Positions 12,083 to 46,776 of a stretch of 64,000 bases of DNA are shown here, piece by piece. The DNA lies in the NCBI GenBank assembly GCA_017508975.1, contig JAFWQU010000023.1, positions 16,075 to 80,074 on the forward strand. The letters are read 5' to 3'. How positions within the stretch are numbered: position 1 is the first letter of the stretch; each line of letters starts with the position of its first letter. A program made the position numbers and the translations under genes. This stretch comes from Clostridia bacterium (lineage in GTDB: Bacteria; Bacillota; Clostridia; Christensenellales; Aristaeellaceae). The notes beneath the pieces are model-generated. The model saw only the letters and a list, made by a program, of their open reading frames with translations. It searched no databases and was not told the origin of the DNA.

Positions 12083-12147
12083 GCGCATGCGCCCGAAGGT
12101 CCAGGGCGATCGGAAAGCCTTGGTCGCGCCCGCAGGCGCGAAATCCC
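12083..12147 (-). repeat. RPT-A copy 3 (core 12093-12145), reverse orientation
   Basis: The plus strand reads CCGAAGGTCCAGGGCGATCGGAAAGCCTTGGTCGCGCCCGCAGGCGCGAAATC. Hairpin 2 has one G-T pair on this strand. Confidence 0.95.
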
Positions 12148-12254
12148 CCGCTATGGTTTGACAATCCTGCCGGGGAATAAGGATAAGACGGAATGGGATG
12201 GCCCATTATACCGCCTGTGGCAGAGTTTGGCAATCAAAAAGTGCATCGGGGGGC

Positions 12255-12283
12255 TTGACATTGGGGAAGGGCGGTGCTATACT
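12255..12283 (+). promoter_or_regulatory. Near-consensus sigma-A promoter (TTGACA-17 nt-TATACT) for the HMA/P-type ATPase genes
   Basis: TTGACA at 12255-12260, a 17-nt spacer, and TATACT at 12278-12283. Confidence 0.7.
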
Positions 12284-12290
12284 GCAAGCA

Positions 12291-12314
12291 TCATATGAAT
12301 GATTGTTCATATGA
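12291..12314. promoter_or_regulatory. Perfect 9-6-9 inverted repeat, candidate metalloregulator (ArsR/SmtB-like) operator
   Basis: TCATATGAA-tgattg-TTCATATGA lies immediately downstream of the -10 box and upstream of the metal-transport genes. Confidence 0.5.
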
Positions 12315-12335
12315 TAATAAGTCGAGCGGAGGGAC

Positions 12336-12560
12336 ATGACCATGAAAAAGACCTATGCCATTGATGTCGACTGCGCAAACTGTGCCAACAAGATGGAGCA
12401 GGCCGCCTGCGGGACGCCCGGCGTGGCGAAGGCGGTGGTGAATTTCATGACGCTGAAGATGACGGTGGAGTTTGCCGAGGGCGCGCAGCCGGCGGAGGTC
12501 ATGCGCGAGGTGCTGGCCCGCTGCCGCAAGGTGGAGCCCGACTGCGACATCCGGCTGTGA
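12336..12560 (+). CDS. Stand-alone heavy-metal-associated (HMA) domain protein
   Basis: ORF 74 aa with YAIDVDCANCANKMEQA (a CxxC metal site in a ferredoxin-like HMA fold). It ends with a TGA 16 nt before the ATPase start, in a different frame. Confidence 0.75.
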   Translation: MTMKKTYAIDVDCANCANKMEQAACGTPGVAKAVVNFMTLKMTVEFAEGAQPAEVMREVLARCRKVEPDCDIRL

Positions 12561-12576
12561 GGCGGAGGGCTTTTCC

Positions 12577-14442
12577 ATGAACCGCAGACAGAAAAACACG
12601 CTGGTCCGGATTATTGTCTCCGCGATGCTGCTGGCCGTCGTACACTTCCTGCCCCTGGACGGCTGGGTCAAGCTGGCAGCGTACCTGGTGCCGTACGGGA
12701 TCATCGGACATGACATCCTGCGCAAGGCGTGGAAGGGCATCCGCAACCGGCAGCCCTTCGACGAGTGCTTCCTGATGGCCTTCGCGACGCTGGGCGCGCT
12801 GGCGCTGGGACGGCTGAAGACCGGGGACTACGACGAGGCCGTGGCGGTCATGCTGTTCTACCAGATCGGCGAGTGGTTCCAGTCGATGGCGGTGGACAAG
12901 AGCCGCCGCTCGATCACTGATCTGATGAACATCCGGCCAGACAGCGCGAACCTGGAGGACGCGGAGGGCCGCTGCACCGCTGTGGACCCGGACGAGGTGC
13001 CGGTGGGTTCAATCGTGCAGGTCAACCCCGGCGACCGGATCCCGATCGACGGCGTTGTCCGCAGCGGCAGCGCGGCGCTGGATACGGCGGCGCTCACCGG
13101 CGAGAGCCTGCCCCGGGAGGCCGAGGAGGGCGACGAGGTGCTCTCCGGCTGCGTGTGCCTGACGGGCTTTCTGCGGATCGAGACGACCCGGGAGGCCGGG
13201 GATTCCACCGCGGCGCGCGTGATGGAGATGGTCGAGAACGCCTCCTCCCGCAAGAGCCGCAGCGAGGCCTTCATCAGCCGCTTCGCGCGGGTCTACACCC
13301 CCGCGGTGGTGTTCGGCGCGCTGGCGCTGGCGCTGCTGGGGCCCGCGGTGCGGCTGCTGATGGGCCTGACGCCCGAGTGGGGCGACTGGTTCATGCGGGC
13401 GCTGACCTTCCTGGTGATCTCCTGCCCCTGCGCGCTGGTGATCTCGATCCCGCTGACGTTTTTTGCGGCGATCGGGCGGGCGAGCCGCGCGGGTGTGCTG
13501 GTCAAGGGCTCCAACTACCTGGAGGCGCTGGCCAACACCCGGCTGATCGCCTTTGACAAGACCGGCACCGTGACCCAGGGCGTGTTCGAGGTGGCCGGCG
13601 TGCACCATGCCGTGCTGCCCACGGAGAAGATCCTGGAGCTGGCGGCGCTGGCGGAATCGCACTCCGGCCATCCGATCAGCCAGAGTCTGCAGAAGGCCTG
13701 CGGGAAGGAGCTGGATCCCCTGCGGGTGACCGAGGTGGAGGAGCTGGCGGGCGAGGGCGTGATCGCCCGCGTCGACGGGCGGCAGGTGGCCTGCGGCAAC
13801 GAGCGCCTGATGGCCCGGCTGGGGATCTCCGCGGAACCGTGCCGGAGCGTAGGCACCGTGGTGCACGTGGCGCTGGACGGCGCCTACGCCGGCCATATCC
13901 TGATCGCGGACAAGCTGAAGCCCACCGCGCGGGAGGCGCTGGACCAGCTGCGCGCCTGCGGCGTGCGGAAGACCGTGATGCTGACCGGCGACCGCGAGGA
14001 GGCGGCCCGGGAGGCGGCGCGGGACCTGGGCGTGGACGAGCTGTACGCGGGTCTGCTCCCGGTGGACAAGGTGGCGAAGGTTGAGGCGCTGCTGGAGGAG
14101 AAGCGTCCCCATGAGGCCCTGGGATTCGTGGGCGACGGCCTGAATGACGCGCCGGTGCTCTCCCGCGCGGACATCGGCATCGCCATGGGCGCGCTGGGCT
14201 CCGACGCGGCGATCGAGGCGGCGGACGTGGTTCTGATGGACGACGACCCCCTGCGGATCTCGACGGCGATCCGTCTGGCGCGGCGCTGCATGCGCATCGT
14301 GCGGGAAAACATCGCCTTCGCCATCGGCGTGAAGCTCATCTGCCTGCTCCTGGGCGCGCTGGGAATCGGCTCCATGTGGCTTGCGATCTTCGCCGACGTG
14401 GGCGTGATGGTGCTGGCGGTGCTCAACGCGATCCGCGTCTGA
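12577..14442 (+). CDS. Heavy-metal (Cd/Zn/Co-type) translocating P1B-type ATPase lacking an N-terminal HMA domain
   Basis: This lies within ORF 12472..14442. I set the start at ATG 12577 (MNRRQKNTLVRII...) with a GGAGGG RBS. Motifs are SCPCALVIS (CPC), FDKTGTVT, MLTGD and VGDGLNDAPVL. Confidence 0.9.
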   Translation: MNRRQKNTLVRIIVSAMLLAVVHFLPLDGWVKLAAYLVPYGIIGHDILRKAWKGIRNRQPFDECFLMAFATLGALALGRLKTGDYDEAVAVMLFYQIGEWFQSMAVDKSRRSITDLMNIRPDSANLEDAEGRCTAVDPDEVPVGSIVQVNPGDRIPIDGVVRSGSAALDTAALTGESLPREAEEGDEVLSGCVCLTGFLRIETTREAGDSTAARVMEMVENASSRKSRSEAFISRFARVYTPAVVFGALALALLGPAVRLLMGLTPEWGDWFMRALTFLVISCPCALVISIPLTFFAAIGRASRAGVLVKGSNYLEALANTRLIAFDKTGTVTQGVFEVAGVHHAVLPTEKILELAALAESHSGHPISQSLQKACGKELDPLRVTEVEELAGEGVIARVDGRQVACGNERLMARLGISAEPCRSVGTVVHVALDGAYAGHILIADKLKPTAREALDQLRACGVRKTVMLTGDREEAAREAARDLGVDELYAGLLPVDKVAKVEALLEEKRPHEALGFVGDGLNDAPVLSRADIGIAMGALGSDAAIEAADVVLMDDDPLRISTAIRLARRCMRIVRENIAFAIGVKLICLLLGALGIGSMWLAIFADVGVMVLAVLNAIRV

Positions 14443-14529
14443 GGGCCTCCAAAGGGCATAAAAACAGAACTTTTGCCGCCGAATTCGAAAAAAAGATTGA
14501 AAGCAGGCTGTTTTCCGCTTGAAAAACTG

Positions 14530-14558
14530 TTGCATTAACCGCTGGAATGGGCTATAAT
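14530..14558 (+). promoter_or_regulatory. Sigma-A promoter for hup (TTGCAT-17 nt-TATAAT)
   Basis: TTGCAT at 14530-14535 and TATAAT at 14553-14558. Confidence 0.65.
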
Positions 14559-14607
14559 AGCGTCAGAGGCGAAAGCCCCCAGAACAATTTCAGAAAGGAT
14601 GCGTAAC

Positions 14608-14907
14608 ATGAACAAGCAGGAACTGATCGAGAAGGTTTCCTCGAAGGCTGAAATCACCAAGGCGGAGGCCGCTAAGGTCGTCAGCGCTACCCTGGAGAGC
14701 ATCACTGAGGGCCTCGTGGCCGACAAAAAGGTGATCCTGGTTGGCTTTGGCACGTTTGAGGTTCGTGAGCGCGCTGCCCGCGAGGGCCGCAATCCCCGCA
14801 CCGGCGACAAGATCAAGATCGCCGCGACCAAGGTGCCCGCTTTCAAGCCCGGCAAGGACATGAAGGAAGCCGTCAACGTGAAGAAGGGCAAGAAGGCCAA
14901 GAAGTAA
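14608..14907 (+). CDS. hup: HU family DNA-binding protein with a short Lys-rich C-terminal tail
   Basis: ORF track 14599..14907. MNKQELIEKVSSKAEITKAEA...GFGTFEVRERAAREGRNPRTGDKIKI is canonical HU. ATG 14608 has better RBS spacing (GAAAGGA). The tail is NVKKGKKAKK. Confidence 0.93.
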   Translation: MNKQELIEKVSSKAEITKAEAAKVVSATLESITEGLVADKKVILVGFGTFEVRERAAREGRNPRTGDKIKIAATKVPAFKPGKDMKEAVNVKKGKKAKK

Positions 14908-14922
14908 TTCATTTGCAAAGCA

Positions 14923-14951
14923 AACGCCGTCCGCTGCGGACGGCGTTTTTC
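14923..14951 (+). terminator. Rho-independent terminator of hup
   Basis: AACGCCGTCCG-ctg-CGGACGGCGTT followed by TTTT. Confidence 0.85.
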
Positions 14952-14976
14952 GGTGCGTCAGAAGCATATCAAACGG

Positions 14977-15060
14977 ATGCTTATCGTCAACAGTGAGATT
15001 TCGCGGCCTGCGGGCCGCGACCAGGGCTTTCCGATCGCCCTGGACCTTTGGTTACATGCC
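14977..15060 (+). repeat. RPT-A copy 4 (core 14995-15051)
   Basis: Full core, ending CCTTTGG instead of CCTTCGG. It lies between the hup terminator and the stop of the 15147 gene. Confidence 0.95.
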
Positions 15061-15146
15061 TTTTCTTGATTTGCAGTTATTACCTGAGAGTAGTATCAGT
15101 ACGAATTCCAGTTTGCCTGGCCAAATGATAAACGGAAACCCGGAAG

Positions 15147-15560: not shown

Positions 15561-15676
15561 TGGGGTTCAACTCCTTTCGTTTTGTGCAATCCCGCTAAAG
15601 CGGAGTATCAGGAGAGTTTCATAGCGGTTTTTCTTCCGACATTTCTTTGCATCGGATATCCTGACAAACCGGACGC

Positions 15677-19484: not shown

Positions 19485-19487
19485 CCC

Positions 19488-21364: not shown

Positions 21365-21375
21365 TTTTGTGTTGC

Positions 21376-21477
21376 ACTGATCTCAGTTTAGAACGCTTAT
21401 TGTCAGTAGTGAGATTTCGCGGCCTGCGGGCCGCGACCAGGGCTTTCCGATCGCCCTGGACCTTCGGCCGCATACTG
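21376..21477 (+). repeat. RPT-A copy 5 (core 21411-21467)
   Basis: Full core with a distal arm of the CTCAGTTTAGAACGCTTATTGTCAG type. Confidence 0.95.
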
Positions 21478-21509
21478 TTAGCGAATTTGTATTTATTCTT
21501 GAAATTAGC

Positions 21510-21554: not shown

Positions 21555-22634
21555 TTATCTCAGCGTCACATACCCCGCCTGGGCGACGCAGGCCTGGCCC
21601 TCGTCGGAGACGAGCCAGTCGACAAAGCGCTCGGCGGTCTCGTTGCCTTTCACGTAAACCGCGTAGTAGTAGACGGTGTAGGGGTAGGCGCCGCTGCGCA
21701 GGTTCTCCGGGGTGGGGGCGGCGCCGTCCACGGCGAGGACCTTCAGGCTGCCGTCCTTGTAGAGCGCGTCCACGTAGTAGAGATAGGAGTAGCCCAGGGC
21801 GTTGACGGCGTTGGTGTAGTTGCCGACCTGCCGGACGAGGTCCGCCATGCCGTCGGCGATGTAGTTCTGCGCGGCGGCGGTGAGCTGCAGGCCGTCCATC
21901 ACCATCTCCTCCATGGCGGTCTGGCTGCCGGAGCCGTGGGGGCGCTGGTAGGGGACGATCACAGCGTCCTCCCTGCCGCCGACCTCGCTCCAGAGGAGCG
22001 TGCCGCCGGTGTAGATCGAGCGGATCTGCTCTGCGGTGAGCCCGTCGACCGGGTTCTCGCTGTTGACGAGAAAGACGAAAGCGTCGTAGCAGACGGGGAC
22101 CATCACGAACTCCACGCCCGCCTCCACGGCGGCCTGCCGCTCGTCGGCGTTGGGGCCGGTGCCCAGGACAATATCGATCGGGTGCGTGTCGTCCATCATG
22201 ACGTTCCGGGAGACCAGGGTCACCATGGGGTTGGCCTTGCCCTGGGTCAGCCTGTCATAGGCGAAGGGCGTGGTGGAGAAGCTGACGAAGCCGTTCAGGT
22301 CCTCCTCCGGCAGGTCAAGCCACTGCCGGGCCAGCTCCATGGCCAGCGGGACGCAGACGGTCGAGCCGTCGATGGAGGGGTACTCGCCCCAGTCCCCGAT
22401 GAAGAGGGACTCGTCGCCCTCCAGGGGCCGGGTCCCGCCGAGCTGGAAGTCCGACGGCGTCTCCACAAAGCGCTGCCAGCCCTCCCCGCGGGCGAGGGAC
22501 TGGTTGATCTGGCTCCAGGAGCCGGAGGATGCGGGCTCGGTTTCGTCGGGTTCGGACTCGGCCAGCGCGGGCAGACAGCTCAGTGTCAGGCACAGCGCCA
22601 GCAGCAGCGGCAGAAGCTTGCGACAGATTGTCAT
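21555..22634 (-). CDS. Secreted PstS-family (PBP_like_2) substrate-binding domain protein
   Basis: ORF 359 aa with a signal peptide (LLPLLLALCLTLSCLPALAE). The C-terminal two thirds resemble phosphate-binding-protein-like folds (YDAFVFLVNSENPV..LTAEQIRSIYTG..W). GGAGGAG RBS. Confidence 0.65.
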   Translation of the reverse strand: MTICRKLLPLLLALCLTLSCLPALAESEPDETEPASSGSWSQINQSLARGEGWQRFVETPSDFQLGGTRPLEGDESLFIGDWGEYPSIDGSTVCVPLAMELARQWLDLPEEDLNGFVSFSTTPFAYDRLTQGKANPMVTLVSRNVMMDDTHPIDIVLGTGPNADERQAAVEAGVEFVMVPVCYDAFVFLVNSENPVDGLTAEQIRSIYTGGTLLWSEVGGREDAVIVPYQRPHGSGSQTAMEEMVMDGLQLTAAAQNYIADGMADLVRQVGNYTNAVNALGYSYLYYVDALYKDGSLKVLAVDGAAPTPENLRSGAYPYTVYYYAVYVKGNETAERFVDWLVSDEGQACVAQAGYVTLR

Positions 22635-22667: not shown

Positions 22668-22790
22668 TCTAATACTAATCTCAGTTTAGAACGTTTATTG
22701 TCAACAGAGAGATTTCGCGGCCTGCGGGCCGCGACCAGGTCCGCAGCCGGACTGGCGGTTTTCCGATCGCCCTGGACCTTCGGTGACATC
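22668..22790 (+). repeat. RPT-A copy 6 (core 22709-22783) with an ~18-nt insertion inside hairpin 2
   Basis: CCAGG-[TCCGCAGCCGGACTGGCG]-GTTTTCCGATCGCCCTGG. It lies between the LRR gene stop and the PstS-like gene start. Confidence 0.9.
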
Positions 22791-22825
22791 GGCTGCCTGA
22801 AGGATAGATCTTCTTTCTGAAAGCG

Positions 22826-27412: not shown

Positions 27413-27763
27413 ATGGCCGTCATTCAGATCTATGTCTCGAAGAAGAATTTTGATCAGCAGAAGGCGGAGCGCTATTTCAAGGAGCGCCGGATTCAGGTGC
27501 AGCTCCTGGACCTCAAGCGCCACAAGCTCGGTCCCCGGGAGATCGAGACCCTGGCCCGCGGGCTCGGCGGTGTGCAGAATCTGCTGGATCGGGAGGATAA
27601 GCGCGTGAAGGAGCATCCCGCCTGCTATTGCACAGATGCAGCGCTTCTGACCGAGATGATCCAGGAGAATCCGTGGCTTCTCCGCTCGCCGATCCTGCGC
27701 TGCGGCAGCAAGGTCACGGTCGGCTATCAGCCGGAGGTTTGGGCTGGGTGGACTGCGGGGTGA
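27413..27763 (+). CDS. ArsC/Spx/MgsR family protein (lacks the CxxC motif)
   Basis: ORF track 27383..27763. I set the start at MAVIQIYVSKKNFDQQKAERYFKERRIQVQLLDL (27413). It has the thioredoxin-like ArsC-family N-terminus, but no redox cysteine pair at the usual position. Confidence 0.6.
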   Translation: MAVIQIYVSKKNFDQQKAERYFKERRIQVQLLDLKRHKLGPREIETLARGLGGVQNLLDREDKRVKEHPACYCTDAALLTEMIQENPWLLRSPILRCGSKVTVGYQPEVWAGWTAG

Positions 27764-27805
27764 GGGAGATTCACTCTTTTGGAGAGAGTGTGATACTTCC
27801 AGAGG

Positions 27806-27860
27806 GGGATTTCGCGCCTGCGGGCGCGACCAGGGCTTTCCGATCGCCCCGGACCTTCGG
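27806..27860 (+). repeat. RPT-A copy 7 (first unit of the tandem array)
   Basis: Short-stem hairpin 1. The 3' arm of hairpin 2 is GCCCCGG, which gives A-C on this strand and G-T on the opposite strand. Confidence 0.95.
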
Positions 27861-27899
27861 GGGAATTCACTCTTTTGGAGAGGTGGATGTTTTCAGAGG

Positions 27900-27956
27900 G
27901 GGATTTCGCGGCCTGCGGGCCGCGACCAGGGCTTTCCGATCGCCCTGGACCTTCGG
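27900..27956 (+). repeat. RPT-A copy 8 (second unit of the tandem array)
   Basis: Canonical core. Confidence 0.95.
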
Positions 27957-28014
27957 GGAATTCACCTTTTTGGAGAGGTCGGTAGTTGAGGTAAGAAATT
28001 AAATTGAGAATCAG

Positions 28015-28046
28015 AAAGCCTGTTCCGTAGATGAGCAGGCTTTTTC
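28015..28046 (+). terminator. Rho-independent terminator downstream of the arsC-like gene and tandem repeats
   Basis: AAAGCCTG-ttccgtagatgag-CAGGCTTT followed by TTTCT. Confidence 0.65.
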
Positions 28047-28164
28047 TATATCGGGAATCAAATTGTTAAAAATCTGTTTCATAAATTCACAAATTCAGAA
28101 GGCTCAGCTCGGAACATCTATGGTAATTCCGAACAAGAATAACAAATCAAGTAAGGGGAGGGGG

Positions 28165-28230
28165 ATTGCCCGAAGAGTCCAGAGGCGATCGGAAAGCCTC
28201 TGGTCGCGCCCGCAGGCGCGAAATCTCTTG
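28165..28230 (-). repeat. RPT-A copy 9, reverse orientation, long-stem hairpin 2 variant
   Basis: CCGAAGAGTCCAGAGGCGATCGGAAAGCCTCTGGTCGCGCCCGCAGGCGCGAAATC. Confidence 0.95.
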
Positions 28231-28314
28231 TTCTATTCTTTTGAAAAAACTAACTGCGATAATGAAATAATGCGTAATATATGAAAATAATCAACAAATA
28301 TGTCACAGAAAGGA

Positions 28315-32524: not shown

Positions 32525-32597
32525 TAATACTGATCTCAGTTTAGAATGCTCATTGTCAGCAGTAAGATTTCGCGCCCGCAGGCGCGAAAACCTTCTG
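32525..32597 (+). repeat. RPT-A copy 14, truncated (distal arm plus hairpin 1 only)
   Basis: TAATACTGATCTCAGTTTAGAATGCTCATTGTCAGCAGTAAGATTTCGCGCCCGCAGGCGCGAAAACC. Hairpin 2 is missing and the hairpin 1 loop is inverted. Confidence 0.8.
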
Positions 32598-32632
32598 TAT
32601 GAATTCAAAATTCTATGAGCAAAACGGCATAC

Positions 32633-37334: not shown

Positions 37335-39104
37335 ATGAGACGTGAAATCCGGCTGGCCGCGCACTATGTAAAACGATACTGGTTCTTCTATCTGGCGGGC
37401 ATCGTCTCCCTGACGGCGGTGGACCTGCTGGTGGTGCAGATGCCGCTGATCACCGGCGAGATTGTGGACGGACTGGACAAACAGCTGCTGGCCGCGGAGG
37501 GCATCCGGCGGCTGCTTTTCCGCATGCTCTGGATGGGCGCGGCCATCGCGGTGGGACGCTTCGGCTGGCGCTTCTTTTTCTTCGGCTCCTCGCGCAGCAT
37601 CGAGCGGGACGTGCGCAACGACCTCTTCGGACATCTTGAGACGCTGTCCATGCGCTACTACAACGAGCACAAGACCGGTGACCTGATGGCGCACTTCACC
37701 TCCGACCTGGGGGCGGTCCGGCAGCTGCTCGGCATGACGATTATCACGACCTTCGACGCCTCGGTGGAACTGATCCTGGTGCTGTACCGGATGATCCGCT
37801 ATGTGGACGCCCGGCTGACCGTGGTGGCGGTGATTCCGCTGATTATCATCATCTTCGGCGACGTGGCGTTCGGCAAGGCCATGCACCGGCGCTTCCTGGC
37901 CAAGCAGGAGGCCTTCGCCTCCCTGACGGACCAGAGCCAGGAGGCGATCAGCGGCATCCGGGTGATCAAGGCCTTTGTCCAGGAGCGCAAGGAGCTCATG
38001 GCCTTCGCGAAGGCGGCGCGGAACTGCCGGGACAAGAACCTGGCGGTCTCGCGGCTGGTCTCGAACGTGTTCCCGGCACTGGACCTGATCATCGGCGTGT
38101 CGAGCCTGCTGACGCTGCTCTACGGCGGCTGGCTGGCCATCAACGGCGAGATCACCGTGGGACAGTTCGTGGCGTTCAACAGCTATATCGGCATGCTGGT
38201 CTGGCCGATGATCGCGGTGGGGGAGGCGGTATCCAACATCTCCCAGGGCCTGGCGTCCCTCAAGCGCATCGGCGTGATCCTCGACGAGAAGCCGGACATT
38301 GTCGATGAGGGCGATCCCGCGGTGAAGGAGCTCCGGGGCGGCATCACGCTGGAGGGCCTGAGCTTCTCCTATCCCGGCGCGGAGGACCATCCGGCGCTCA
38401 GGAACGTCAGCGTGACCGTCGCCCCCGGGGAGACCCTGGCGATCCTGGGCCGGACCGGCAGCGGCAAGACCACGCTGGTGAACCTGCTGGAGCGGCTGTG
38501 GGACACAGAGGATCCCGACATGATCCGCCTGGACGGGCGGCCGATCCGCGAGATCCCGCTGGAGGTCCTGCGGCGGGATATTGCCTATGTGCCGCAGGAT
38601 CACTTCCTCTTCTCGGACACCGTGGCGCGCAATATCGGCTTCGGGGTGGAGAATGCGGAACAGGCGGAGATCGAGCAGGCGGCCCGGGAGGCCTGCGTGC
38701 ACGACAATATCCTGGAGTTTCCCGAGGGTTATGAGACGGTGCTGGGCGAGCGCGGCGTGACGATCTCCGGCGGCCAGAAGCAGCGCACGGCCATCGCGCG
38801 GGCGCTGATGAAGCGCGCGCCGATCCTGATTCTGGACGACAGTCTCTCCGCCGTGGACACGGACACGGAGGAACAGATCCTGCGGAATCTGCGGCAGATC
38901 CGCGCGGGCATGACCACGCTGATCATCGCGCACCGGATCTCCACGATCCAGCACGCGGACCATATCCTCGTGCTTGAGGACGGGCAGAAGGCGGAGTACG
39001 GCACCCACGCGGAGCTCCTGGCGAAACAGGGCATCTACCGCGACATCTACGAGAAGCAGCAGCTGGAGCGCCAGCTGCAGGAGGAAGGCGGTGACGCGCT
39101 GTGA
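37335..39104 (+). CDS. ABC exporter, fused permease/ATPase (subunit 1 of a heterodimeric pair)
   Basis: ORF track 37329..39104. It has six TM helices and then an NBD with GRTGSGKTT, ISGGQKQR and ILILDDSLSAVD. Confidence 0.9.
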   Translation: MRREIRLAAHYVKRYWFFYLAGIVSLTAVDLLVVQMPLITGEIVDGLDKQLLAAEGIRRLLFRMLWMGAAIAVGRFGWRFFFFGSSRSIERDVRNDLFGHLETLSMRYYNEHKTGDLMAHFTSDLGAVRQLLGMTIITTFDASVELILVLYRMIRYVDARLTVVAVIPLIIIIFGDVAFGKAMHRRFLAKQEAFASLTDQSQEAISGIRVIKAFVQERKELMAFAKAARNCRDKNLAVSRLVSNVFPALDLIIGVSSLLTLLYGGWLAINGEITVGQFVAFNSYIGMLVWPMIAVGEAVSNISQGLASLKRIGVILDEKPDIVDEGDPAVKELRGGITLEGLSFSYPGAEDHPALRNVSVTVAPGETLAILGRTGSGKTTLVNLLERLWDTEDPDMIRLDGRPIREIPLEVLRRDIAYVPQDHFLFSDTVARNIGFGVENAEQAEIEQAAREACVHDNILEFPEGYETVLGERGVTISGGQKQRTAIARALMKRAPILILDDSLSAVDTDTEEQILRNLRQIRAGMTTLIIAHRISTIQHADHILVLEDGQKAEYGTHAELLAKQGIYRDIYEKQQLERQLQEEGGDAL

Positions 39105-40930
39105 AGAAGCAAAACGGGCGCGACCGTCTCTTCGGCGGACAGGAGGCGCGGGAGGCCGCGGCGGAGATCCACTATGAGGGCAGGGCGCTGCCGAGACTGA
39201 TGCGCTATATGAAGTCCCACTGGAAGACGCTGCTGCTCTGCTTCGGGCTGGTGCTGGCGGTGACGGGGCTGGACCTGAGCCGGCCGGTGCTGATCGGCAA
39301 CGCGATCGACCGCTATATCACCGGGGAGGGCGTCGCGGCGATTCCGCCGGAGGTGCGCTTTGCCGGCATCCTGAAGGCCGCCGCGCTCTATGTGGCGGTG
39401 CTGGTGGTGCTCTTCCTGTGCAACCGCGCGCAGTTCTGGCTGATGCAGCGCACGGGCCAGCGGATCATCTGCCAGATCCGCGAGGAGATTTTCGCCCACG
39501 TGGAGTCGCTGACGATGCGTTTCTTCGACATCACGCCGGTGGGCAAGATCGTGACGCGGCTGACCAACGATGTGGACGCCATCAACGACGTCTTCGCCAA
39601 CAGCCTCGTGCAGCTGTTCAAGAACAGCGTGAAGATGGTGGGCCTGGTGGTGATCATGAGCCTGCTGAACCTGCGGCTGACGGGCTACGCGCTGGTGCTG
39701 GTGCCGCTGGTGGCGGTGCTGACCGTGCTCTTCCGAAAGCTCAGCCGGCAGGCCTTCCAGATCACGCGCTCACGGCTCTCCGACCTGAATACCTATCTCT
39801 CCGAGCACCTCTCCGGCATGCGGGTGATCCAGCTGTTCAACCGGGAGCGGCAGAAGTACGAGGAGTTTGAGGGCAAGAACGGCGGGCTCTACCGGGCGGG
39901 CTTCCGGGAGCTGATGATCAACGCGACCTTCCGGCCGATCCTGTATTTCATCTCCGTGGTCGCGCTGATCCTGCTGATGGACCAGGGCGGCGGCGAGGTG
40001 CTGCGGGGCAGCCTGAGCATCGGCACGCTGTACATCTTCATCAACTATATGGACAACCTCTTCCAGCCGATTCAGGAGCTGGCGGAGCAGTTCGCGAACC
40101 TTCAAAATGCGATCGCCTCGGCGGAGAAAATCTTCACGCTGCTGGACACGAAGCCCCTGCTGACCGACCCGGAGGAGCCGGCGCACGTGCGGCCGATCCG
40201 CGGGCGCATCGAGTTCGACCACGTCTGGTTCGCCTACCAGGGCGAGGAGTGGGTGCTGCGGGACGTGTCCTTCGTGATCGAGCCGGGACAGCGCATCGCC
40301 TTCGTAGGCGCGACCGGCGCGGGCAAGAGCTCGATCCTGAACCTGATCGGCCGGTACTACGACGTGCAGAAGGGCACTATCCGCGTGGACGGGGTGGATA
40401 TCCGGCAGATGAGCCGGGAGGAGCTGCGTTCCGCCATCGGGCAGGTACAGCAGGACGTCTTTATCTTTACGGGCGACATCCAGTCCAATATCCGCCTGCG
40501 GGACGAGCAGATCACGGACGAGATGGTCCGCGAGGCGGCGCGGGAGGTCAACGCCGCCCGGTTCATCGACCGGCTGCCCGGCGGCTACGCGCACCCGGTG
40601 ACGGAGCGGGGCAGCACCCTCTCCGCCGGCCAGCGGCAGCTGCTCTCCTTCGCCCGGACGCTGGCGCGGGATCCGGCGATCCTCGTGCTGGACGAGGCCA
40701 CCTCCAACATCGACACGGAGACCGAGCAGTGGATCCAGGAGGCGGTGGAGCATCTGATGCGCGGCCGGACCACGATCATGGTGGCGCACCGCCTGTCCAC
40801 GATCCAGCACGCGGACCTCATCATGGTCATGCACCACGGAAAGATCTGCGAGAGCGGCACCCATCAGGAGCTGCTGGAGCAGGACGGCATCTACAAAAAA
40901 CTCTACCAGCTGCAGCTGGCAGAGCATTGA
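39101..40930 (+). CDS. ABC exporter, fused permease/ATPase (subunit 2)
   Basis: ORF 609 aa. The GTG start overlaps the upstream stop (GTGA). NBD motifs are GATGAGKSS, LSAGQRQL and ILVLDEATSNID. Confidence 0.9.
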   Translation: MKKQNGRDRLFGGQEAREAAAEIHYEGRALPRLMRYMKSHWKTLLLCFGLVLAVTGLDLSRPVLIGNAIDRYITGEGVAAIPPEVRFAGILKAAALYVAVLVVLFLCNRAQFWLMQRTGQRIICQIREEIFAHVESLTMRFFDITPVGKIVTRLTNDVDAINDVFANSLVQLFKNSVKMVGLVVIMSLLNLRLTGYALVLVPLVAVLTVLFRKLSRQAFQITRSRLSDLNTYLSEHLSGMRVIQLFNRERQKYEEFEGKNGGLYRAGFRELMINATFRPILYFISVVALILLMDQGGGEVLRGSLSIGTLYIFINYMDNLFQPIQELAEQFANLQNAIASAEKIFTLLDTKPLLTDPEEPAHVRPIRGRIEFDHVWFAYQGEEWVLRDVSFVIEPGQRIAFVGATGAGKSSILNLIGRYYDVQKGTIRVDGVDIRQMSREELRSAIGQVQQDVFIFTGDIQSNIRLRDEQITDEMVREAAREVNAARFIDRLPGGYAHPVTERGSTLSAGQRQLLSFARTLARDPAILVLDEATSNIDTETEQWIQEAVEHLMRGRTTIMVAHRLSTIQHADLIMVMHHGKICESGTHQELLEQDGIYKKLYQLQLAEH

Positions 40931-40932
40931 TT

Positions 40933-41046
40933 CATACTAATCTCATTTTGAATGCTTATTGTCAACAGTGAGATTTCGCGGCCTGCGGGCCGCGACCAGG
41001 GCTTTCCGATCGCCCTGGACCTTCGGGTGCACCTTTTTGGAGAGAA
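40933..41046 (+). repeat. RPT-A copy 10 (core 40970-41026)
   Basis: Canonical core with a TTTGAATGCTTATTGTCAACAG arm and a 3' GTGCACCTTTTTGGAGAG extension. It begins 3 nt after the ABC exporter stop. Confidence 0.95.
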
Positions 41047-41077
41047 TCATGTTTCAGATGAAAAACCAATCCAAAAG

Positions 41078-41105
41078 GCAGCGGGTCATGAGCCCGCTGC
41101 TTTTC
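41078..41105 (+). terminator. Rho-independent terminator between the inverted RPT-A pair
   Basis: GCAGCGGG-tcatgag-CCCGCTGC followed by TTTTC, with an A-run upstream, so it is possibly bidirectional. Confidence 0.7.
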
Positions 41106-41145
41106 TGCCTATGCGATTCCCAAACGGACATACATCAATAGGGGG

Positions 41146-41210
41146 AATGCCCGAAGAGTCCAGAGGCGATCGGAAAGCCTCTGGTCGCGCCCGCAGGCGC
41201 GAAATTCTCC
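41146..41210 (-). repeat. RPT-A copy 11, reverse orientation, long-stem hairpin 2 variant
   Basis: Nearly identical to copy 9. It ends 11 nt before the GH13 stop codon. Confidence 0.95.
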
Positions 41211-41220
41211 TGTGGACGGT

Positions 41221-42762
41221 TCAGCCTTCAAGAACCATGCAGACCGTCTGTCCCTGTACGCAGAGCCCCTTGTCCGTGAGGGAGGCGCTTTCGCCGACGG
41301 CGGAGAGAATCTGGCCTTTGACCTGCCAGACACAGGGAGCGGCGGCGGGATTCACGACGACCGTGATCCGCTCGGAACCGGCGCTGCGGCGGTAGACCAG
41401 GGGATAGCCCTCGTCGGCGAGCAGCTCGAAATCACCGGTGTTGTCCAGCGCGGGGTGCGCGCGGCGCAGGGCGGTCAGCGCCTGTACGGTGCGCCAGAGA
41501 CTGTCCGGGTCGGCCTGCTGGTCGGCGACGTTCGGCCGCTCCGGGTCGGCGTCCTGGGCGATGTAGAGCCGTTCGGCGGGCGCGGCGCTGAAGCCGGCGT
41601 TGGCCGTGCGGTCCCACTGCATCGGGGAGCGGGAGCCGGTGCGCTCGTAGCCGCCCTCCACGGAGTGGATGCCCTCGAGATAGCGCATGCCGATCTCGTC
41701 GCCGTAGTAGATGAACGGCACGCCTGGCATCGTCAGCAGGAAGGCGAAGACAAGGCGGATCTCCTCCGGCGTCAGATATTTCGCCAGGCGCGCCATGTCG
41801 TGGTTGCCGGAGGGGAAGGCGATCAGCCCGTTGGGGCCTGCCTTCTTCCGACAGGCGAGGTAGTGCGCCATGAAGGCGGCGGCGCTGCCCTTCCCCCGGG
41901 CGGAGAAATAGGGCTCCTCGCACCGGAAGAGGTCGTTGTAGTGGCTCGGACCGAAGTGCAGCAGGAAGTCCATGTGGAAGCCGCCCTCCAGGGACTTCTC
42001 CGGATCGCCCCACTCGGAGACCATCGCGGCGCCGGGGTGCGTCTTGTCCAGCCAGGCGCGGATGCCCTGCCACAGGCGGATCGTGCCCTTCTTCTCCGGG
42101 TCGTTCTTGACCATGGCGTGGGCCATGTCCACCCGGAAGCCGTCGCAGCCCAGGCTCAGCCAGAAGTCCATGATCCGCTTCATCTCGGCGATGTTCGCCT
42201 GCGGGCCGGGCGCGTCTGGGGACTGCTGCCAGGGGCGGTCGATCTCCTCGAAGCCGTAGTTCAGCGCGGGCTGGTGGCTGAAGAAGTTCACCAGACAGCT
42301 GCCGTTCCGCTCCGAGATGCCGTGCAGGAAGCTGGCGCCCTCCATGCGCTCCCAGACGTTGTCGGTCCAGACATAGCGGTCGGTCCAGGCGTTGCGGTCC
42401 CCCTTGCAGGATTCGGCGAATCCGGGGTGGTCGATGGCGGTGTGCCCCGGAACCAGATCGAGAAAGACATGCATGCCCCGGCGGTGCGCCTCGGCGAAGA
42501 GCTCCTTCAGGTCCTCGTTGGTGCCGTAGCGGGGCGCGGCGGTGTAGAAGTCCAGCACGTCGTAGCCCGCGTCGCGGAAGGGCGAGGCAAAGCAGGGATT
42601 CAGCCACAGCGCGTTGCAGCCCAGTTCCTGGATCACCGGAAGCTTCCGCAGAATGCCCCGGAAGTCCCCGATGCCGTCCGCGTTGGTGTCGCAGAAGGAC
42701 TGCGGATAGATTTCATAAAAGATGGCGTGGTCCAGCCAGGCCGGATGCGATGCGAATTCCAT
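41221..42762 (-). CDS. GH13 alpha-amylase family enzyme (alpha-glucosidase / oligo-1,6-glucosidase-like)
   Basis: This lies within ORF 41221..42990. I set the start at MEFASHPAWLDHAIFYEIYPQSF (42762) after an AGGAGG RBS. GH13 regions present are DGIGDF, GMHVFLDLVPGH, GFRVDMAH and SEWGD. Confidence 0.85.
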   Translation of the reverse strand: MEFASHPAWLDHAIFYEIYPQSFCDTNADGIGDFRGILRKLPVIQELGCNALWLNPCFASPFRDAGYDVLDFYTAAPRYGTNEDLKELFAEAHRRGMHVFLDLVPGHTAIDHPGFAESCKGDRNAWTDRYVWTDNVWERMEGASFLHGISERNGSCLVNFFSHQPALNYGFEEIDRPWQQSPDAPGPQANIAEMKRIMDFWLSLGCDGFRVDMAHAMVKNDPEKKGTIRLWQGIRAWLDKTHPGAAMVSEWGDPEKSLEGGFHMDFLLHFGPSHYNDLFRCEEPYFSARGKGSAAAFMAHYLACRKKAGPNGLIAFPSGNHDMARLAKYLTPEEIRLVFAFLLTMPGVPFIYYGDEIGMRYLEGIHSVEGGYERTGSRSPMQWDRTANAGFSAAPAERLYIAQDADPERPNVADQQADPDSLWRTVQALTALRRAHPALDNTGDFELLADEGYPLVYRRSAGSERITVVVNPAAAPCVWQVKGQILSAVGESASLTDKGLCVQGQTVCMVLEG

Positions 42763-42924: not shown

Positions 42925-42949
42925 TATATAAAAAATCTCCGGAAAGTAC

Positions 42950-42978: not shown

Positions 42979-43013
42979 TTCAGCGTACAAACGGAACAGG
43001 GAGGAACTTACCG

Positions 43014-44240
43014 ATGAAGGCAGCGAAAGAGATCAAGAAAATTGTCCTGGCCTACTCCGGCGGGCTGGATACCTCGATCATTATCCCCTGGCTGAAAGAG
43101 AACTACGAGGGCTGCGAGGTCATCGCGGTCTCCGGCAACGTGGGTCAGGCGGACGAGCTGGAGGGCCTGGAGGAGAAAGCGCTGGCGACCGGCGCCTCCA
43201 AGCTGTATGTGCTGGACCTGACGGACGACTATGTGGAGAATTACATCATCCCCACCATGCAGGCCGGCGCCGTCTATGAGGACTATCTGCTGGGCACCAG
43301 CCACGCGCGGCCCTGCATCGCCAAGGGACTGGTGGAGATCGCCCTGAAGGAGGGCGCCGACGCCATCTGTCACGGCTGCACCGGCAAGGGCAACGACCAG
43401 GTCCGCTTCGAGCTGGCCATCAAGCACTTCGCGCCGCAGATGACGATCATTGCCCCCTGGCGGATCTGGGACATCAAGAGCCGCGAGGAGGAGATCGAGT
43501 ACGCCGAGGCGCACCACGTCCCGCTGAAGATCAACCGCGAGACCAACTACTCCAAGGACAAGAACCTCTGGCACCTGAGCCACGAGGGCCTGGACCTGGA
43601 GGACACCGGCAACGAGCCGCAGTACGAGAAGCCCGGCTTCCTGGAGATGGGCATCTCCCCGCTGCAGGCCCCCGACGAGCCCACCTACGTGGAGATCGAG
43701 TTTGAGCAGGGCGTCCCGGTGTCGGTGGACGGCGTGCGCATGAGCCCGAAGGAAGTCATCCTGAAGCTCAACGAACTCGGCGGCGCGAACGGCATCGGCA
43801 TTATCGACATCGTGGAGAACCGGCTGGTGGGCATGAAGTGCCGCGGCGTCTATGAGACCCCCGGCGGCACCATCCTCTACAAGGCCCACGAGGCGCTCGA
43901 GTCCATCTGCCTGGACAAGATGACCCTGCATGAGAAGCAGCGGCTGTCCATCACCTTCGCCGAGCTGGTCTACAACGGCCAGTGGTTCACCCCCCTGCGG
44001 GAGGCGCTCTCCGCCTTCGTCACCAAGACCCAGGAGAAGGTGACCGGCAAGGTGCGGCTGAAGCTCTACAAGGGCAACATCATCAAGGCCGGCACCTGGA
44101 GCCCCAACAGCCTCTACTCCGAGGCGATCGCGACCTTCGGCGCCAGCGACTACGACCAGACCGACGCCAACGGCTTCATCAACCTCTTCGGCCTGCCGAT
44201 CAAGGTGCAGGCGATGGTGGACGCCGCGAACAACAAGTGA
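43014..44240 (+). CDS. argG: Argininosuccinate synthase
   Basis: ORF track 42966..44240. I set the start at [21 protein letters not shown] (43014) after a GGGAGGAA RBS. The [12 protein letters not shown] motif is present. Confidence 0.95.
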
Positions 44241-44298
44241 ATCCGCGGCCCAGCGCCGCCGGAAGGATAGACAGAATCAGAATTAAGGAGGAATCCCC

Positions 44299-45054
44299 AT
44301 GAAGAAACTGTTTGCTCTGCTGCTCTGCGCCGCGATGCTGTGCGCTTCCCTCTCCGCGCTGGCGGAGGCTCCCGCCTATGCGACCGTCGAGGCCGGCAAG
44401 CTGACCATCTCCACCAGCCCCGATTTCCCGCCCTTCGAGTACACTGACGACGCGGACAACATCATCGGCATCGAGCCCGACCTGATCGCGCTGATCGGCG
44501 AAAAGATCGGCCTGGAGCCCAACTGGATCGCGATGGACTTTGACGCCGCGCTGGTCGCTCCGCAGACCGGCAAGACCGACATCGTCGTCTCCGGCGTGAC
44601 CGTGCGCGAGGACCGCAAGGCCATGTTCGACTTCACCCACACCTACGTGAGCATCCACCAGGCGATCCTGGTGAAGGAGGGCTCCGAGATCAACCAGGAG
44701 AACCTCGGCGAGTATCTGATCGGCGTCCAGTCCGGCACCACGGGCCACATCTACGCCGAGGAAGACTACGGCACGGACCACGTTGCCGCCTATGACAAGT
44801 ACGGCATGGCGGTGGCGGCCCTGACCAACGGCCAGGTGGACTGCATCCTGATGGACGACATGGTGGCGCAGGCCTACGCCAAGCGGGTGCCCGGCCTGGT
44901 GGTGCTCCCGACCAGCTACGAGCAGGAGGACTTCGCCTTCGGTCTGGCCAAGGGCCACGAGGAGCTGCTCAACGCCATCAACGCCGCGCTGGACGAGCTG
45001 ATCGCCGACGGCACGGTGGAGGAGATCATCGTCAAGTATCAGACCGCTGAGTAA
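44299..45054 (+). CDS. Amino acid ABC transporter substrate-binding protein
   Basis: ORF 251 aa with a signal peptide and a PBP type 2 (family 3) pattern (FPPFEY..., DIVVSGVTV..R). Confidence 0.85.
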   Translation: MKKLFALLLCAAMLCASLSALAEAPAYATVEAGKLTISTSPDFPPFEYTDDADNIIGIEPDLIALIGEKIGLEPNWIAMDFDAALVAPQTGKTDIVVSGVTVREDRKAMFDFTHTYVSIHQAILVKEGSEINQENLGEYLIGVQSGTTGHIYAEEDYGTDHVAAYDKYGMAVAALTNGQVDCILMDDMVAQAYAKRVPGLVVLPTSYEQEDFAFGLAKGHEELLNAINAALDELIADGTVEEIIVKYQTAE

Positions 45055-45165
45055 TCTTCCCATCGCACTCCGCGAAGGAGCGGCTCCGGGCCGCTCCTTT
45101 CTGGTTCAGTCGGAGGACATGGCCCGTGAGGACGGCGGAACAGATTTTGGAAAGGTGCTGACCCC

Positions 45166-45927
45166 ATGGAACAGTATCAGGCTTGGAAAGCCCTGGTTGT
45201 GTCCGGCAAGGCCGACCTGTGGCAGCAGTTTTATGTCAAGTTTTATCAGGCATTTGTGGAGGGAGACCGCTGGAGGCAGTATCTGCAGGGCGTCGGTACC
45301 ACGCTTCTGGTCACCGCGATGGCGCTGCTGCTGGGCGTCCTGCTGGGCCTGATCGTGTCCATCGTGCGCACCGCGTACGACCAGCAGCGTCCCGGCCACC
45401 GCAACCCGCTGCTGGCGGTGCTCAACGGCTTTTTCAAGGTTTACGTGACCGTCATCCGCGGCACCCCGATGATGGTGCAGCTGATGATCATGGGTCTGGT
45501 GATCTTTGCCTCCAGCCGCAATTTCGCGCTGGTGGGCGCGCTGGCGCTGGGCATCAACTCGGGCGCCTACACTTCGGAGATCATCCGCGGCGGCCTGATG
45601 TCCGTGGACATCGGACAGATGGAGGCAGGACGCAGCCTGGGCATGAACTACGCGGACACCATGCGCTTTATCATCGTTCCCCAGGCGGTGAAGGCAATCC
45701 TGCCCGCCCTGGGCAACGAGTTTATCGTGCTGCTCAAGGACACCTCGCTGATCAGCGTCATCGCCGGCAAGGAGCTGATGTACGCGGCGAAGACCATCAG
45801 CAGCCGGACCTACGAGTATCTGTTCCCTTACATCGGCGTGGCGCTCATCTACCTGCTCCTCGTCATGCTGTTCACCTGGGTGCTGGGCATCTTCGAGAGG
45901 AGGCTGCGGGCAAGTGATCGTCGTTAA
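45166..45927 (+). CDS. Amino acid ABC transporter permease (HisM/GlnP family)
   Basis: ORF 253 aa, hydrophobic, with an EAA loop ([24 protein letters not shown]). Confidence 0.85.
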
Positions 45928-46636
45928 CAAGCTGTGCAAGTCCTTCGGCAAGCTGGAGGTGCTCCACAACGTCTCCGAGCACATTGAAAAGGGCGAGTGC
46001 GTGGTGCTCATAGGCCCCTCCGGCTCGGGAAAATCCACGTTCCTCCGGTGCCTGAACCTCCTGGAGGAGCCCACCTCCGGCGAGATCCTCTTTGACGGGG
46101 TTTCGATGACAAGCCCGAGTACGGACATCAACAGGATGCGCCAGAAGATGGGCATGGTGTTCCAGCACTTCAACCTCTTCCCGAATATGACGATCCTGAG
46201 GAACATCACCCTGGCGCCCACCCGCACGGGCATCATGGTCCGGGAGCAGGCGGAAGCGCGCGCGATGGAGCTCCTGCAGCGCGTGGGCCTGGCGGACAAG
46301 GCAAGCGCCTATCCGGCGCAGCTCTCCGGCGGCCAGAAGCAGCGCGTGGCGATCGTCCGGGCGCTGTGCATGCAGCCCGAGGTCATGCTCTTCGACGAGC
46401 CGACCTCCGCCCTGGACCCGGAGATGGTGGGCGAGGTGCTGGACGTGATGAAGAGCCTCGCCATGGCCGGCATGACCATGGTGGTGGTCACCCACGAGAT
46501 GGGCTTTGCCCGCGAGGTGGCCAACCGCGTGCTGTTCCTGGACGGCGGCGAGATCGTCGAGCAGGGCGACCCGCACAATATCTTCTACAACCCGCAGAGC
46601 GAGCGGCTGAAATCCTTCCTGGCGAAGGTACTGTGA
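45914..46636 (+). CDS. Amino acid ABC transporter ATP-binding protein (GlnQ-like)
   Basis: ORF 240 aa with [20 protein letters not shown] and [11 protein letters not shown]. It overlaps the permease gene by 14 nt. Confidence 0.9.
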
Positions 46637-46673
46637 AAACAAGTCTTCGGATACAAACACAAATCAGGAAACG

Positions 46674-46776
46674 GCATGTATCCGAAGGTCCAGGGCGATC
46701 GGAAAGCCCTGGTCGCGGCCCGCAGGCTGCGAAATCTCTCTGCTGACATTTCGTACACGATATTGTGATCGGTATG
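46674..46776 (-). repeat. RPT-A copy 12 (core 46682-46738), reverse orientation
   Basis: It fills the glnQ-like/argF intercistronic gap. Hairpin 1 has one G-T pair on the plus strand (GGCTGCG). Confidence 0.95.

Follow-up and report, generated by a model that had tools for sequence, protein, structure and literature searches.

Between the genes of a 64,000-nucleotide stretch of a Clostridia bacterium genome (contig JAFWQU010000023.1, assembly GCA_017508975.1; the window, below, is this whole stretch) there recurs a hairpin-forming repeat, RPT-A, which raises the question whether such an element works as a strand-specific RNA or is a piece of DNA that has spread from spacer to spacer. An initial annotation of the window, starting from three single-sided stem substitutions and from the orientation of the copies, had suggested that it is a transcribed RNA element. 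According to our analysis its observations are accurate, while the interpretation is mostly not supported: three wobble pairs and 13 orientations from one window are too small a sample for a strand-specific claim, and the family-wide data do not support it. We show that RPT-A is inserted DNA, restricted to a lineage, indifferent to orientation, inclined to gene ends and constrained in its structure. It is probably a non-autonomous, mobile or formerly mobile, structured dispersed DNA repeat of the kind represented by repetitive extragenic palindromes (REP) and bacterial interspersed mosaic elements (BIME), by ERIC, by BOX and by miniature inverted-repeat transposable elements (MITEs).

Insertion and distribution of the repeat

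One copy, at 46637-46774, can be compared with its empty site. It is a 138-nt insertion placed exactly between the TGA of an ABC ATPase gene and the AGGAGG preceding the ornithine carbamoyltransferase gene, and in four relatives 13-16 nt (TGA-GGAGG...ATG) separate the stop of the first gene from the start of the second. Another spacer, behind the small open reading frame (ORF) 60244-60534, is occupied in the window and in two other loci, L030 and L060 (loci gathered from other assemblies are designated by L and a number). The L060 copy is inverted and the flanks of the cores are unrelated, which points either to independent insertions or to turnover at a favoured spot.

The occurrence among relatives is patchy. 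There are zero copies in 80 metagenomic loci (974,100 nt) around aspartyl-tRNA synthetase (AspRS) genes 75-83% identical to that of the window, and 12 loci (about 177 kb) around ornithine carbamoyltransferase genes of 85-89% identity contain a single copy, in L157. L155 and L156, with 83-87% DNA identity to the window over syntenic genes, have no copy in 21 kb, and L030, 84% identical, carries one. Copies also form arrays and clusters: tandem arrays occur in L064 (6 copies with a period of about 131 nt), L027, L059, L061, L033 and the window itself (period 96 nt), and alternating clusters of mixed subfamilies in L013, L025, L028, L032, L020 and at 27.8-28.2 kb and 40.9-41.2 kb of the window. 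A CRISPR-like array was considered and rejected; the 'spacers' of the arrays are themselves repeated, which identifies the arrays as tandem duplications. Insertion with respect to relatives, patchiness, inversion at a shared site and tandem arrays together contradict the earlier view that RPT-A is more than a repeat at the level of DNA.

Beyond the window, at least 64 stretches were found with a pattern in which neither arm of hairpin 2 was fixed, and the matches listed fall in about 25 metagenome-assembled genomes (MAGs). By their labels these MAGs are Clostridia, Christensenellales, Bacillota or Oscillospiraceae; they were recovered from the rumen and the gut and have 51-68% G+C. Counting the window, the family set has 124 profile hits and 134 covariance-model matches; the weakest matches are doubtful, and about 120 copies are convincing. 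Variant copies are also present in human-faecal scaffolds deposited as 'UNVERIFIED Bacteriophage sp.' (MT837061.1, our L147; MT838741.1, our L148, with 5-6 copies in 4.9 kb; and MT839045.1), which add the human gut to the range of the family and are probably of bacterial and not of phage origin; searches of a plasmid database and of viral contigs gave no matches. Short-read assemblies also seem to break at the repeat: an ENA scaffold from a ruminant gut metagenome, which agrees fully with the window over 9488-31257, ends, by coordinate arithmetic, at about 40988, inside copy 11 of the list below, and the MAG contigs L025, L058, L015 and L033 end in copies.

Copies in the window

A profile built with nhmmer from 11 copies gave 16 matches at 15 places of the window, and the covariance model agrees: RPT-A is present as 14 full or near-full copies and one partial copy, or about one copy per 4 kb. 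Short motifs point the same way, with 18 matches to CCGAAGGTCC (at most one mismatch) against 7.3 expected and 14 matches to GCGAAATC against 2.4 expected, both counts unreached by any shuffle. The conserved module is 55-61 nt long and its parts follow one another as CCGAAGG-T-[CCAGGGC GATCGGAAA GCCCTGG]-T-[CGCG(G)CC CGCA GG(C)CGCG]-AAATC, the first bracket being hairpin 2 (stem of 7-9 bp, invariant top GGC-GATCGGAAA-GCC) and the second hairpin 1 (GC stem of 6-7 bp, loop CGCA). The copies, each found both by nhmmer and by the covariance model, are as follows; UTR stands for untranslated region.

Copy 1, 4936..5061, core 4978-5032, minus strand: long type, between two minus-strand genes, sense; covariance-model match 4974-5036, 83 bits.
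Copy 2, 7514..7644, core 7556-7608, minus strand: long type, hairpin 1 in its 6-bp form; within the 3' UTR of the minus-strand gene 7652-8854, upstream of the bidirectional terminator 7489-7514.
Copy 3, 12055..12190, core 12093-12145, plus strand: divergent spacer; hairpin 2 CCAGGGC/GCCTTGG.
Copy 4, 14959..15087, core 14997-15051, minus strand: long type, 5' motif CCAAAGG.
Copy 5, 21371..21504, core 21413-21467, minus strand: long type, downstream of the terminator (21538 to 21516) of the minus-strand gene 21555-22634.
Copy 6, 22668..22819, core 22711-22783, minus strand: long type, intercistronic, sense; hairpin-forming insertion of 18-19 nt within the 3' arm of hairpin 2.
Copy 7, 27768..27893, core 27808-27860, minus strand: hairpin 2 CCGGGGC/GCCCTGG; antisense in the 3' UTR of the plus-strand gene 27413-27763, in tandem with copy 8 (period 96 nt).
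Copy 8, 27887..27998, core 27902-27956, minus strand: antisense in the same 3' UTR as copy 7, upstream of a terminator-like hairpin at about 28010-28046 (seen by eye, unflagged by the terminator scan).
Copy 9, 28135..28232, core 28171-28225, plus strand: variant subfamily; sequence CCCGAAGAGT-CCAGAGGC-GATCGGAAA-GCCTCTGG, the 8-bp stem arising by matching insertions in both arms.
Partial copy, 32553..32601: hairpin 1 only (CGCGCC/GGCGCG), with flanks AGAAGGT and GAAATC, hairpin 2 precisely missing and a tail to 32525.
Copy 11, 40930..41065, core 40972-41026, minus strand: antisense in the 3' UTR of the plus-strand gene 39101-40930, upstream of the bidirectional terminator 41078-41100.
Copy 12, 41136..41223, core 41152-41205, plus strand: member of the variant subfamily, with the CCAGAGGC stem; antisense in the 3' UTR of the minus-strand gene 41221-42762, back to back with copy 11 across the terminator.
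Copy 13 (copy 12 of the initial annotation), 46637..46774, core 46682-46736, plus strand: hairpin 1 CGCGGCC/GGCTGCG.
Copy 14 (copy 13 of the initial annotation), 47783..47925, core 47823-47877, plus strand: long type, following the ornithine carbamoyltransferase gene in its 3' UTR and preceding the terminator 47957-47970.
Copy 15, 60536..60673, core 60576-60627, plus strand: own 15-bp closing stem TTTCCCGGAGCATGG / CCATGTTCCGGGAAA.

The copy that had earlier been numbered 14 was not located in the window. Copies 9 and 12 make up a variant subfamily with an 8-bp hairpin 2 stem, CCAGAGGC/GCCTCTGG. The partial copy reads AGAAGGT-TT-TCGCGCC...GGCGCGAAATC and has a counterpart in L005:2772-2814; such copies without hairpin 2 suggest, as far as sequence can tell, either a modular build or recombination between hairpins that are both flanked by T.

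The window has about 64% G+C and its genes are housekeeping ones (rplJL, the aspartyl- and histidyl-tRNA synthetases AspRS and HisRS, ABC transporters, ornithine carbamoyltransferase, HU, a P-type ATPase), called with a codon-usage caller whose calls agree over 22 kb with the ENA gene calls of an identical scaffold.

Several observations concern the surroundings of the copies. The tail of copy 4 has an outward promoter-like site (14990 to 14963, minus strand; TTGACG, 16 nt, TG-n-TATGCT), and other long-type tails contain TTGACA without a matching -10 box. A hairpin motif CACTCT-N7-AGAGTG / CTCTCCAAAA(A)GRGTG is found at 27770-27790, 27866-27885 and 41030-41048, that is, in the 5' flank of just those three main-type copies (7, 8 and 11) that are antisense in 3' UTRs, and may be a subfamily-specific flank. 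Of known RNA families, a putative L10 leader (RF00557, 45.5 bits, barely over its gathering score) is at 6387-6523 on the plus strand upstream of rplJ-rplL, with copy 2 just beyond the rplL terminator on the opposite strand, and a lysine riboswitch (Rfam RF00168, 82 bits) is at 62088-62266, plus strand, upstream of the gene 62318-63442 and preceded by a strong promoter-like site at 62057-62085.

Structure and covariation

Across the family CCGAAG, GGC-GATCGGAAA-GCC and the CGCA loop do not vary, and the stems do. Hairpin 1 occurs with CGCGGCC, CGCGCC, CGCGTC/GACGCG, CGCGGTC/GACCGCG, CGCGCTC/GAGCGCG, CGCACC/GGTGCG and CGCGAT/ATCGCG, and hairpin 2, with stems of 7, 8 and 9 bp, with CCAGGGC, CCAGAGGC, CCAGGGGC, CCAAAGGGC, CCAGAGGGC, GCGAGGGT and TAAGGGGGC. 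Among 53 distinct main-type copies 98.4% of the stem cells are paired and 5 pairs are changed on both sides; over all 134 covariance-model matches, an alignment which was fitted to the model and so leans towards it, compensatory changes are seen in 10 of 13 pairs and 98% of the cells are paired. The stem covariation exceeds both shuffle and slide controls, and clearly points to a structural constraint on both hairpins. The two strands fold equally well, as RNA and as DNA, at about -30 kcal/mol for either strand.

Outside the core the ends vary between copies, and many copies from other MAGs have only the core in common. The long unit of the window and of high-G+C MAGs measures 135-165 nt and has complementary ends, GATACnATTCTCAG ... 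CTGAGATnAGTATC. In many copies the core forms the tip of a longer stem that is built from lineage-specific flanks, with paired end variants such as ATACTGATTTT/AAGATCAGTAT in L044, CTGTTCT/AGAACAG in L056 and ATCTCAA/TTGAGAT in L014; the 15-bp closing stem of copy 15 is quite unlike the long-type ends. Over 95 copies, the 40-nt upstream flank pairs better with the 40-nt downstream flank of its own copy (mean -13.15 kcal/mol) than with that of a permuted copy (-11.62 kcal/mol, p = 0.0025) or with its own partner read in reverse (-10.69 kcal/mol, p = 1.4e-5). RNAalifold on a MAFFT alignment of the long type returned the two core hairpins only and did not recover the flank pairing. A closing stem drawn by eye (CAACAG/CTGTTG etc.) was rejected as evidence of covariation; its register shifts between copies.

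Some copies bear insertions (22711-22783 in the window, L014:2347-2427, L002:2415-2526, L050:2345-2549), and the extra hairpin-forming segments sit at or beside the GATCGGAAA loop or between the two hairpins. The 18-19 nt of copy 6 are the same in kind as those of L014:2347, and the insertions of L002 and L050 measure 50-170 nt. The latter two have a 'hairpin + GGGTAAC' motif in common. The inserts at the loop may represent a second small element that targets the GATCGGAAA loop. In L063:262-322 and L013:3704-3764 the 5' module is GGGCGGCAGCCCCGG instead of CCGAAGGT, with the loop and hairpin 1 kept.

Position and orientation relative to genes

Nearly all copies are extragenic, with 122 of the 124 profile hits outside called ORFs and 2 overlapping one. 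Of 46 convergent spacers 20 contain a copy, of 283 tandem spacers 45 and of 43 divergent spacers 5, and the difference between convergent and divergent spacers (p = 0.0009) indicates a preference for the 3' ends of genes. Many copies, lying between a stop codon and a terminator or between cistrons, are very likely transcribed, and to this extent the proposal of a transcribed RNA element stands; the strand-specific part of it does not. Copies 2, 4 and 14 lie sense between a stop codon and an intrinsic terminator, and copies 7, 8, 11 and 12 lie antisense in the same position, so that both strands of the element would be transcribed as 3' UTR.

Such positions would suit an RNA role that is independent of orientation and was acquired by domestication, in which the hairpins block 3'-to-5' exonucleases or direct RNase cleavage and thereby set the relative expression of adjacent genes, as REP does in malEFG of E. 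coli. Several RPT-A copies (one in L050, others at 22.7 kb and 46.7 kb of the window) follow a gene for a solute-binding or ABC protein and precede the cistron after it. The covarying stems and the equal stability of both strands speak for this role too, and the antisense RNA has, by inspection of its sequence, C(UUCG)G and C(UGCG)G tetraloops. On the other side, stability alone leaves the invariant 9-nt loop and CCGAAGG unexplained, and relatives run the same operons without the element. This role is compatible with a mobile DNA repeat; taken by itself we consider it unlikely.

The strand-specific model of the initial annotation says that the CCGAAGG...GAAAUC transcript acts in cis as a stabiliser in 3' UTRs or between cistrons, as a site of processing or as a motif bound by a protein, and it can be confronted with the orientations first. 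Those reported were correct: the copies with cores at 4978, 7556, 14997, 21413, 22711, 46682, 47823 and 60576 are co-directional with the upstream gene, and those at 27808, 27902, 40972 and 41152 are opposite. The window thus offers the model 9 sense copies against 4 antisense (p = 0.27; the copy at 12093 is in a divergent spacer), the four antisense ones being transcribed as such in 3' UTRs. Orientation does not, as had been proposed, follow transcription in the family. With arrays collapsed, and convergent spacers scored against the nearer gene, tandem spacers have 22 copies in sense and 23 in antisense orientation and convergent ones have 10 of each, and the long type outside the window has about 6 sense and 9 antisense by a hand tally, with no sense excess. 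Absence of orientation bias relative to flanking genes is the very outcome that had been named beforehand as speaking against a strand-specific RNA.

Wobble pairs and strand preference

The model's other support came from three stem changes present on one arm only, and these are as described: CCAGGGC/GCCTTGG in the copy at 12093 (plus strand), CCGGGGC/GCCCTGG in the copy starting at 27860 (minus strand) and CGCGGCC/GGCTGCG in the copy at 46682 (plus strand). All three leave G.T on the strand that reads CCGAAGG and A.C on the other. The caution already attached to so few cases was justified, since three of three gives a two-sided p of 0.25, within chance. Copy 6, suspected of being a counter-example, contains its 18-19 nt insertion and one G.A mismatch and is neutral to the argument.

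The count suggested for the whole family, G-U against A-C, was made over the 97 best of the 134 covariance-model matches and gave a mixed answer. There are 21 G-U, 10 A-C and 4 other mismatches, so that a weak excess on the CCGAAGG strand does exist (p = 0.07), and it is confined to hairpin 2 (12:3, p = 0.035); hairpin 1 has 9:7 and no excess. With each distinct substitution type counted once the ratio is 11:6, and the independence of the events is overstated because several come from one tandem array (L064). Among copies with an assignable transcribed strand 12 wobbles are on the mRNA strand and 7 off it, which is not significant. Moreover, G.T is the best-tolerated mismatch in single-stranded DNA hairpins, and a G-U excess is therefore unable to separate RNA from single-stranded DNA.

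The strand-specific model can also draw on the invariance of the unpaired nucleotides, on a GGA in the hairpin 2 loop and on a pairing of GAAGG with a CCUUY tail that closes a three-way junction in several subfamilies. Set against it are the even orientations, the antisense copies in 3' UTRs, the inverted copy of L060 at a shared site, the absence of G-U excess in hairpin 1, wobbles that do not track the mRNA strand and close relatives whose corresponding operons lack the element. Taken together, this makes a strand-specific cis-acting RNA improbable.

Invariant blocks and the CCGAAGG motif

The invariant blocks include the palindrome CGATCG, and one may think of a duplex DNA site at which a host protein (a nucleoid protein, gyrase or an IHF-like protein) would organise the chromosome. 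Host-protein binding has been reported for BIMEs, which the alternating-orientation clusters of RPT-A resemble, and such a function would be free of orientation. Compensatory changes in 10 of 13 pairs, however, mean selection on intrastrand pairing and not on duplex sequence, and the element is missing from close relatives; we consider this analogy quite improbable as an explanation.

For the 5' motif there are three candidate readings, all of them models: a pseudoknot, a mini-hairpin or a closing helix. CCGA is complementary to UCGG of the hairpin 2 loop and could form an H-type pseudoknot. The linker between CCGA and the stem mostly grows with the stem, from 4 nt at 7 bp (AGGT) through 5 nt at 8 bp (AGAGT or AGGGT) to 6 nt at 9 bp (AGGTTT or AGGAGT), with L046 (6-nt linker, 8 bp) and L063 (7 nt, 9 bp) as exceptions, and about 6 copies have single uncompensated changes in the proposed helix. 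Alternatively, CCGAAGG could fold as a C-GAA-G mini-hairpin, a type very stable in DNA, with a C(UUCG)G tetraloop on the other strand, and in several subfamilies GAAGG can pair with the CCUUY tail. L148:793-859 (GCGAAGC ... GACCGCAAA) combines C1->G with G7->C and with G->C in the loop; the first change is compensated by G7->C in the mini-hairpin as well, and the pseudoknot is thus not uniquely supported.

A new small catalytic or ligand-binding RNA, such as a self-cleaving ribozyme, that is multi-copy by chance would be in line with a compact multi-helix fold with invariant unpaired nucleotides, with a possible CCGA:UCGG pseudoknot of generally matched linker and stem lengths, with the joint C1->G and loop G->C changes of L148 and with the frequent multiplicity of twister and hammerhead ribozymes, yet it is very improbable in view of the absence of any Rfam ribozyme or riboswitch match at E up to 10, of the equal frequency of both orientations in transcripts, of the uncompensated changes in the pseudoknot and of the alternative compensation of C1->G.

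Other candidates

The remaining identities that we considered were rejected. The Rfam matches in the window at gathering thresholds are confined to the lysine riboswitch and the L10 leader, and two copies searched with E up to 10 gave no meaningful match; ARAGORN finds no tRNA or tmRNA. A small ORF through the core (ATG-N3-CCG-AAG..., 'MxPKVQGDRKALVA') fails on an ATG offset of 6 or 7 nt depending on the subfamily and on the frame shift between the 6-bp and 7-bp forms of hairpin 1. In a hammerhead-like core (CCGAAGG for CUGANGA, GAAA after the stem) the order of parts does not fit, and Rfam gives no match. Neither hairpin is followed by a U-run on either strand, as an intrinsic terminator would be. 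An integron attC is excluded by the lack of GTTRRRY or RYYYAAC ends and by the mixed orientation between housekeeping genes, with no uniform cassette arrays. A full-text literature search for the loop sequence returned unrelated papers only, and the literature on REP-like repeats in Clostridia and Firmicutes only general work on REP, on REP-associated transposases (RAYT) and on stem-loops. The RPT-A family is apparently undescribed before.

Origin and significance

If RPT-A is a mobile DNA repeat, as we think probable, its spread would require a trans-acting enzyme that recognises the folded module, and such recognition would keep loops and stem geometry conserved while the stem sequences covary. 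The copies do occupy the 3' ends of genes and the spacers between cistrons in both orientations, they duplicate in tandem, and different subfamilies cluster with alternating orientation. Once inserted, they would be co-transcribed in UTRs, where hairpins of this stability on either strand could become orientation-independent barriers or processing sites for mRNA decay, as with REP and ERIC; it would be logical to see in this a side effect or a secondary use and not a strand-specific RNA function.

A number of points weigh against this reading. No transposase or other mobilising gene was found beside the copies, and Pfam finds housekeeping domains only in 30 flanking proteins; a tblastn search with an IS200 TnpA query, a weak test, gave nothing in 510 kb. 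Outside the ends there is no consistent target-site duplication; at the filled site 46637-46774 nothing is shared except TGA, which is part of the element's own consensus end GTATGA, and in the 1.6 Mb of loci gathered there is no parent insertion sequence with the same ends. The hairpin 2 wobbles hint that one strand matters. Over its first 40 nt the core does not differ between MAGs of 51-68% G+C, and at a site whose flanking genes are only 70-84% identical this part is 100% identical. Such conservation goes beyond neutral selfish decay, and recent spread, concerted evolution or selection on sequence is needed to account for it. Finally, no insertion polymorphism within the species is seen, as the one further assembly that was found does not differ from the window.

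We may also offer a bolder suggestion, which we regard as improbable. The invariance of CCGAAGG and of the GAUCGGAAA loop, linkers and stems of mostly matching length and the triple covariation of L148 could be the marks of a three-dimensional fold of one strand, single-stranded DNA or RNA, that is the target of a dedicated enzyme. That would be a new Clostridia partnership of repeat and enzyme, similar to that of REPIN and RAYT with a different substrate, or else a new small catalytic RNA carried on a mobile repeat.

If a mobile repeat is confirmed, we have here a very dense and well-defined repeat family in an uncultured lineage of ruminant and human gut Clostridia for which no such element has been described. 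Insertion between stop codons and ribosome-binding sites or terminators means that mRNA ends are probably altered in many operons. The patchiness among genomes 83-87% identical makes the family a useful marker and a natural test case for the invasion and persistence of repeats.

Comparison with known repeat systems

RPT-A resembles the REP/BIME and REPIN sequences of E. coli, Pseudomonas and Stenotrophomonas, which are mobilised by RAYT Y1 transposases. In both cases high-copy extragenic hairpins occupy gene 3' ends and intercistronic sites in both orientations, form alternating and tandem clusters, are lineage-specific and are transcribed in mRNAs. There are also differences. A REP is a single imperfect palindrome of 20-40 nt, and the RPT-A core, 55-61 nt long, combines a 5' motif with two hairpins that are unlike each other. 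One account (PMC3733652) defines REP by a tetranucleotide, GTAG or CGTC, at the base of the palindrome, and the RPT-A consensus CCGAAGGTCCAGGGCGATCGGAAAGCCCTGGTCGCG..CGCGAAATC is without either tag. The loops of RPT-A are invariant while its stems vary, its host is an uncultured Clostridia lineage, and no RAYT gene was seen among the genes flanked by its copies.

ERIC, or the intergenic repeat unit (IRU), of Enterobacteria and Vibrio is likewise imperfectly palindromic over about 130 nt and forms a long hairpin, is found at transcribed intergenic sites in either orientation, has size variants by internal insertion at fixed sites and is without a known transposase or a clear target-site duplication. 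RPT-A differs from it in an unrelated sequence, in a conserved multi-hairpin apex on variable closing stems, in the taxon and in a much higher local density.

With MITEs such as Correia/NEMIS of Neisseria and RUP of Streptococcus pneumoniae, RPT-A has in common the length of 100-170 nt, the complementary termini of its long type, insertion relative to related genomes, the intergenic position and co-transcription. Its termini differ between copies and its internal core is constant, the opposite of what MITEs usually show, and it has neither a defined target-site duplication nor, among the loci gathered, a parent insertion sequence with matching ends.

BOX and SPRITE of Streptococcus pneumoniae are unrelated to RPT-A in sequence and in module structure, and for them an orientation bias relative to neighbouring genes has been reported, in contrast to the even orientations of RPT-A. 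The means of mobility is not known for either. They share with RPT-A a modular and structured build in which the number of modules varies, an intergenic position in a Gram-positive genome and stable predicted folds.

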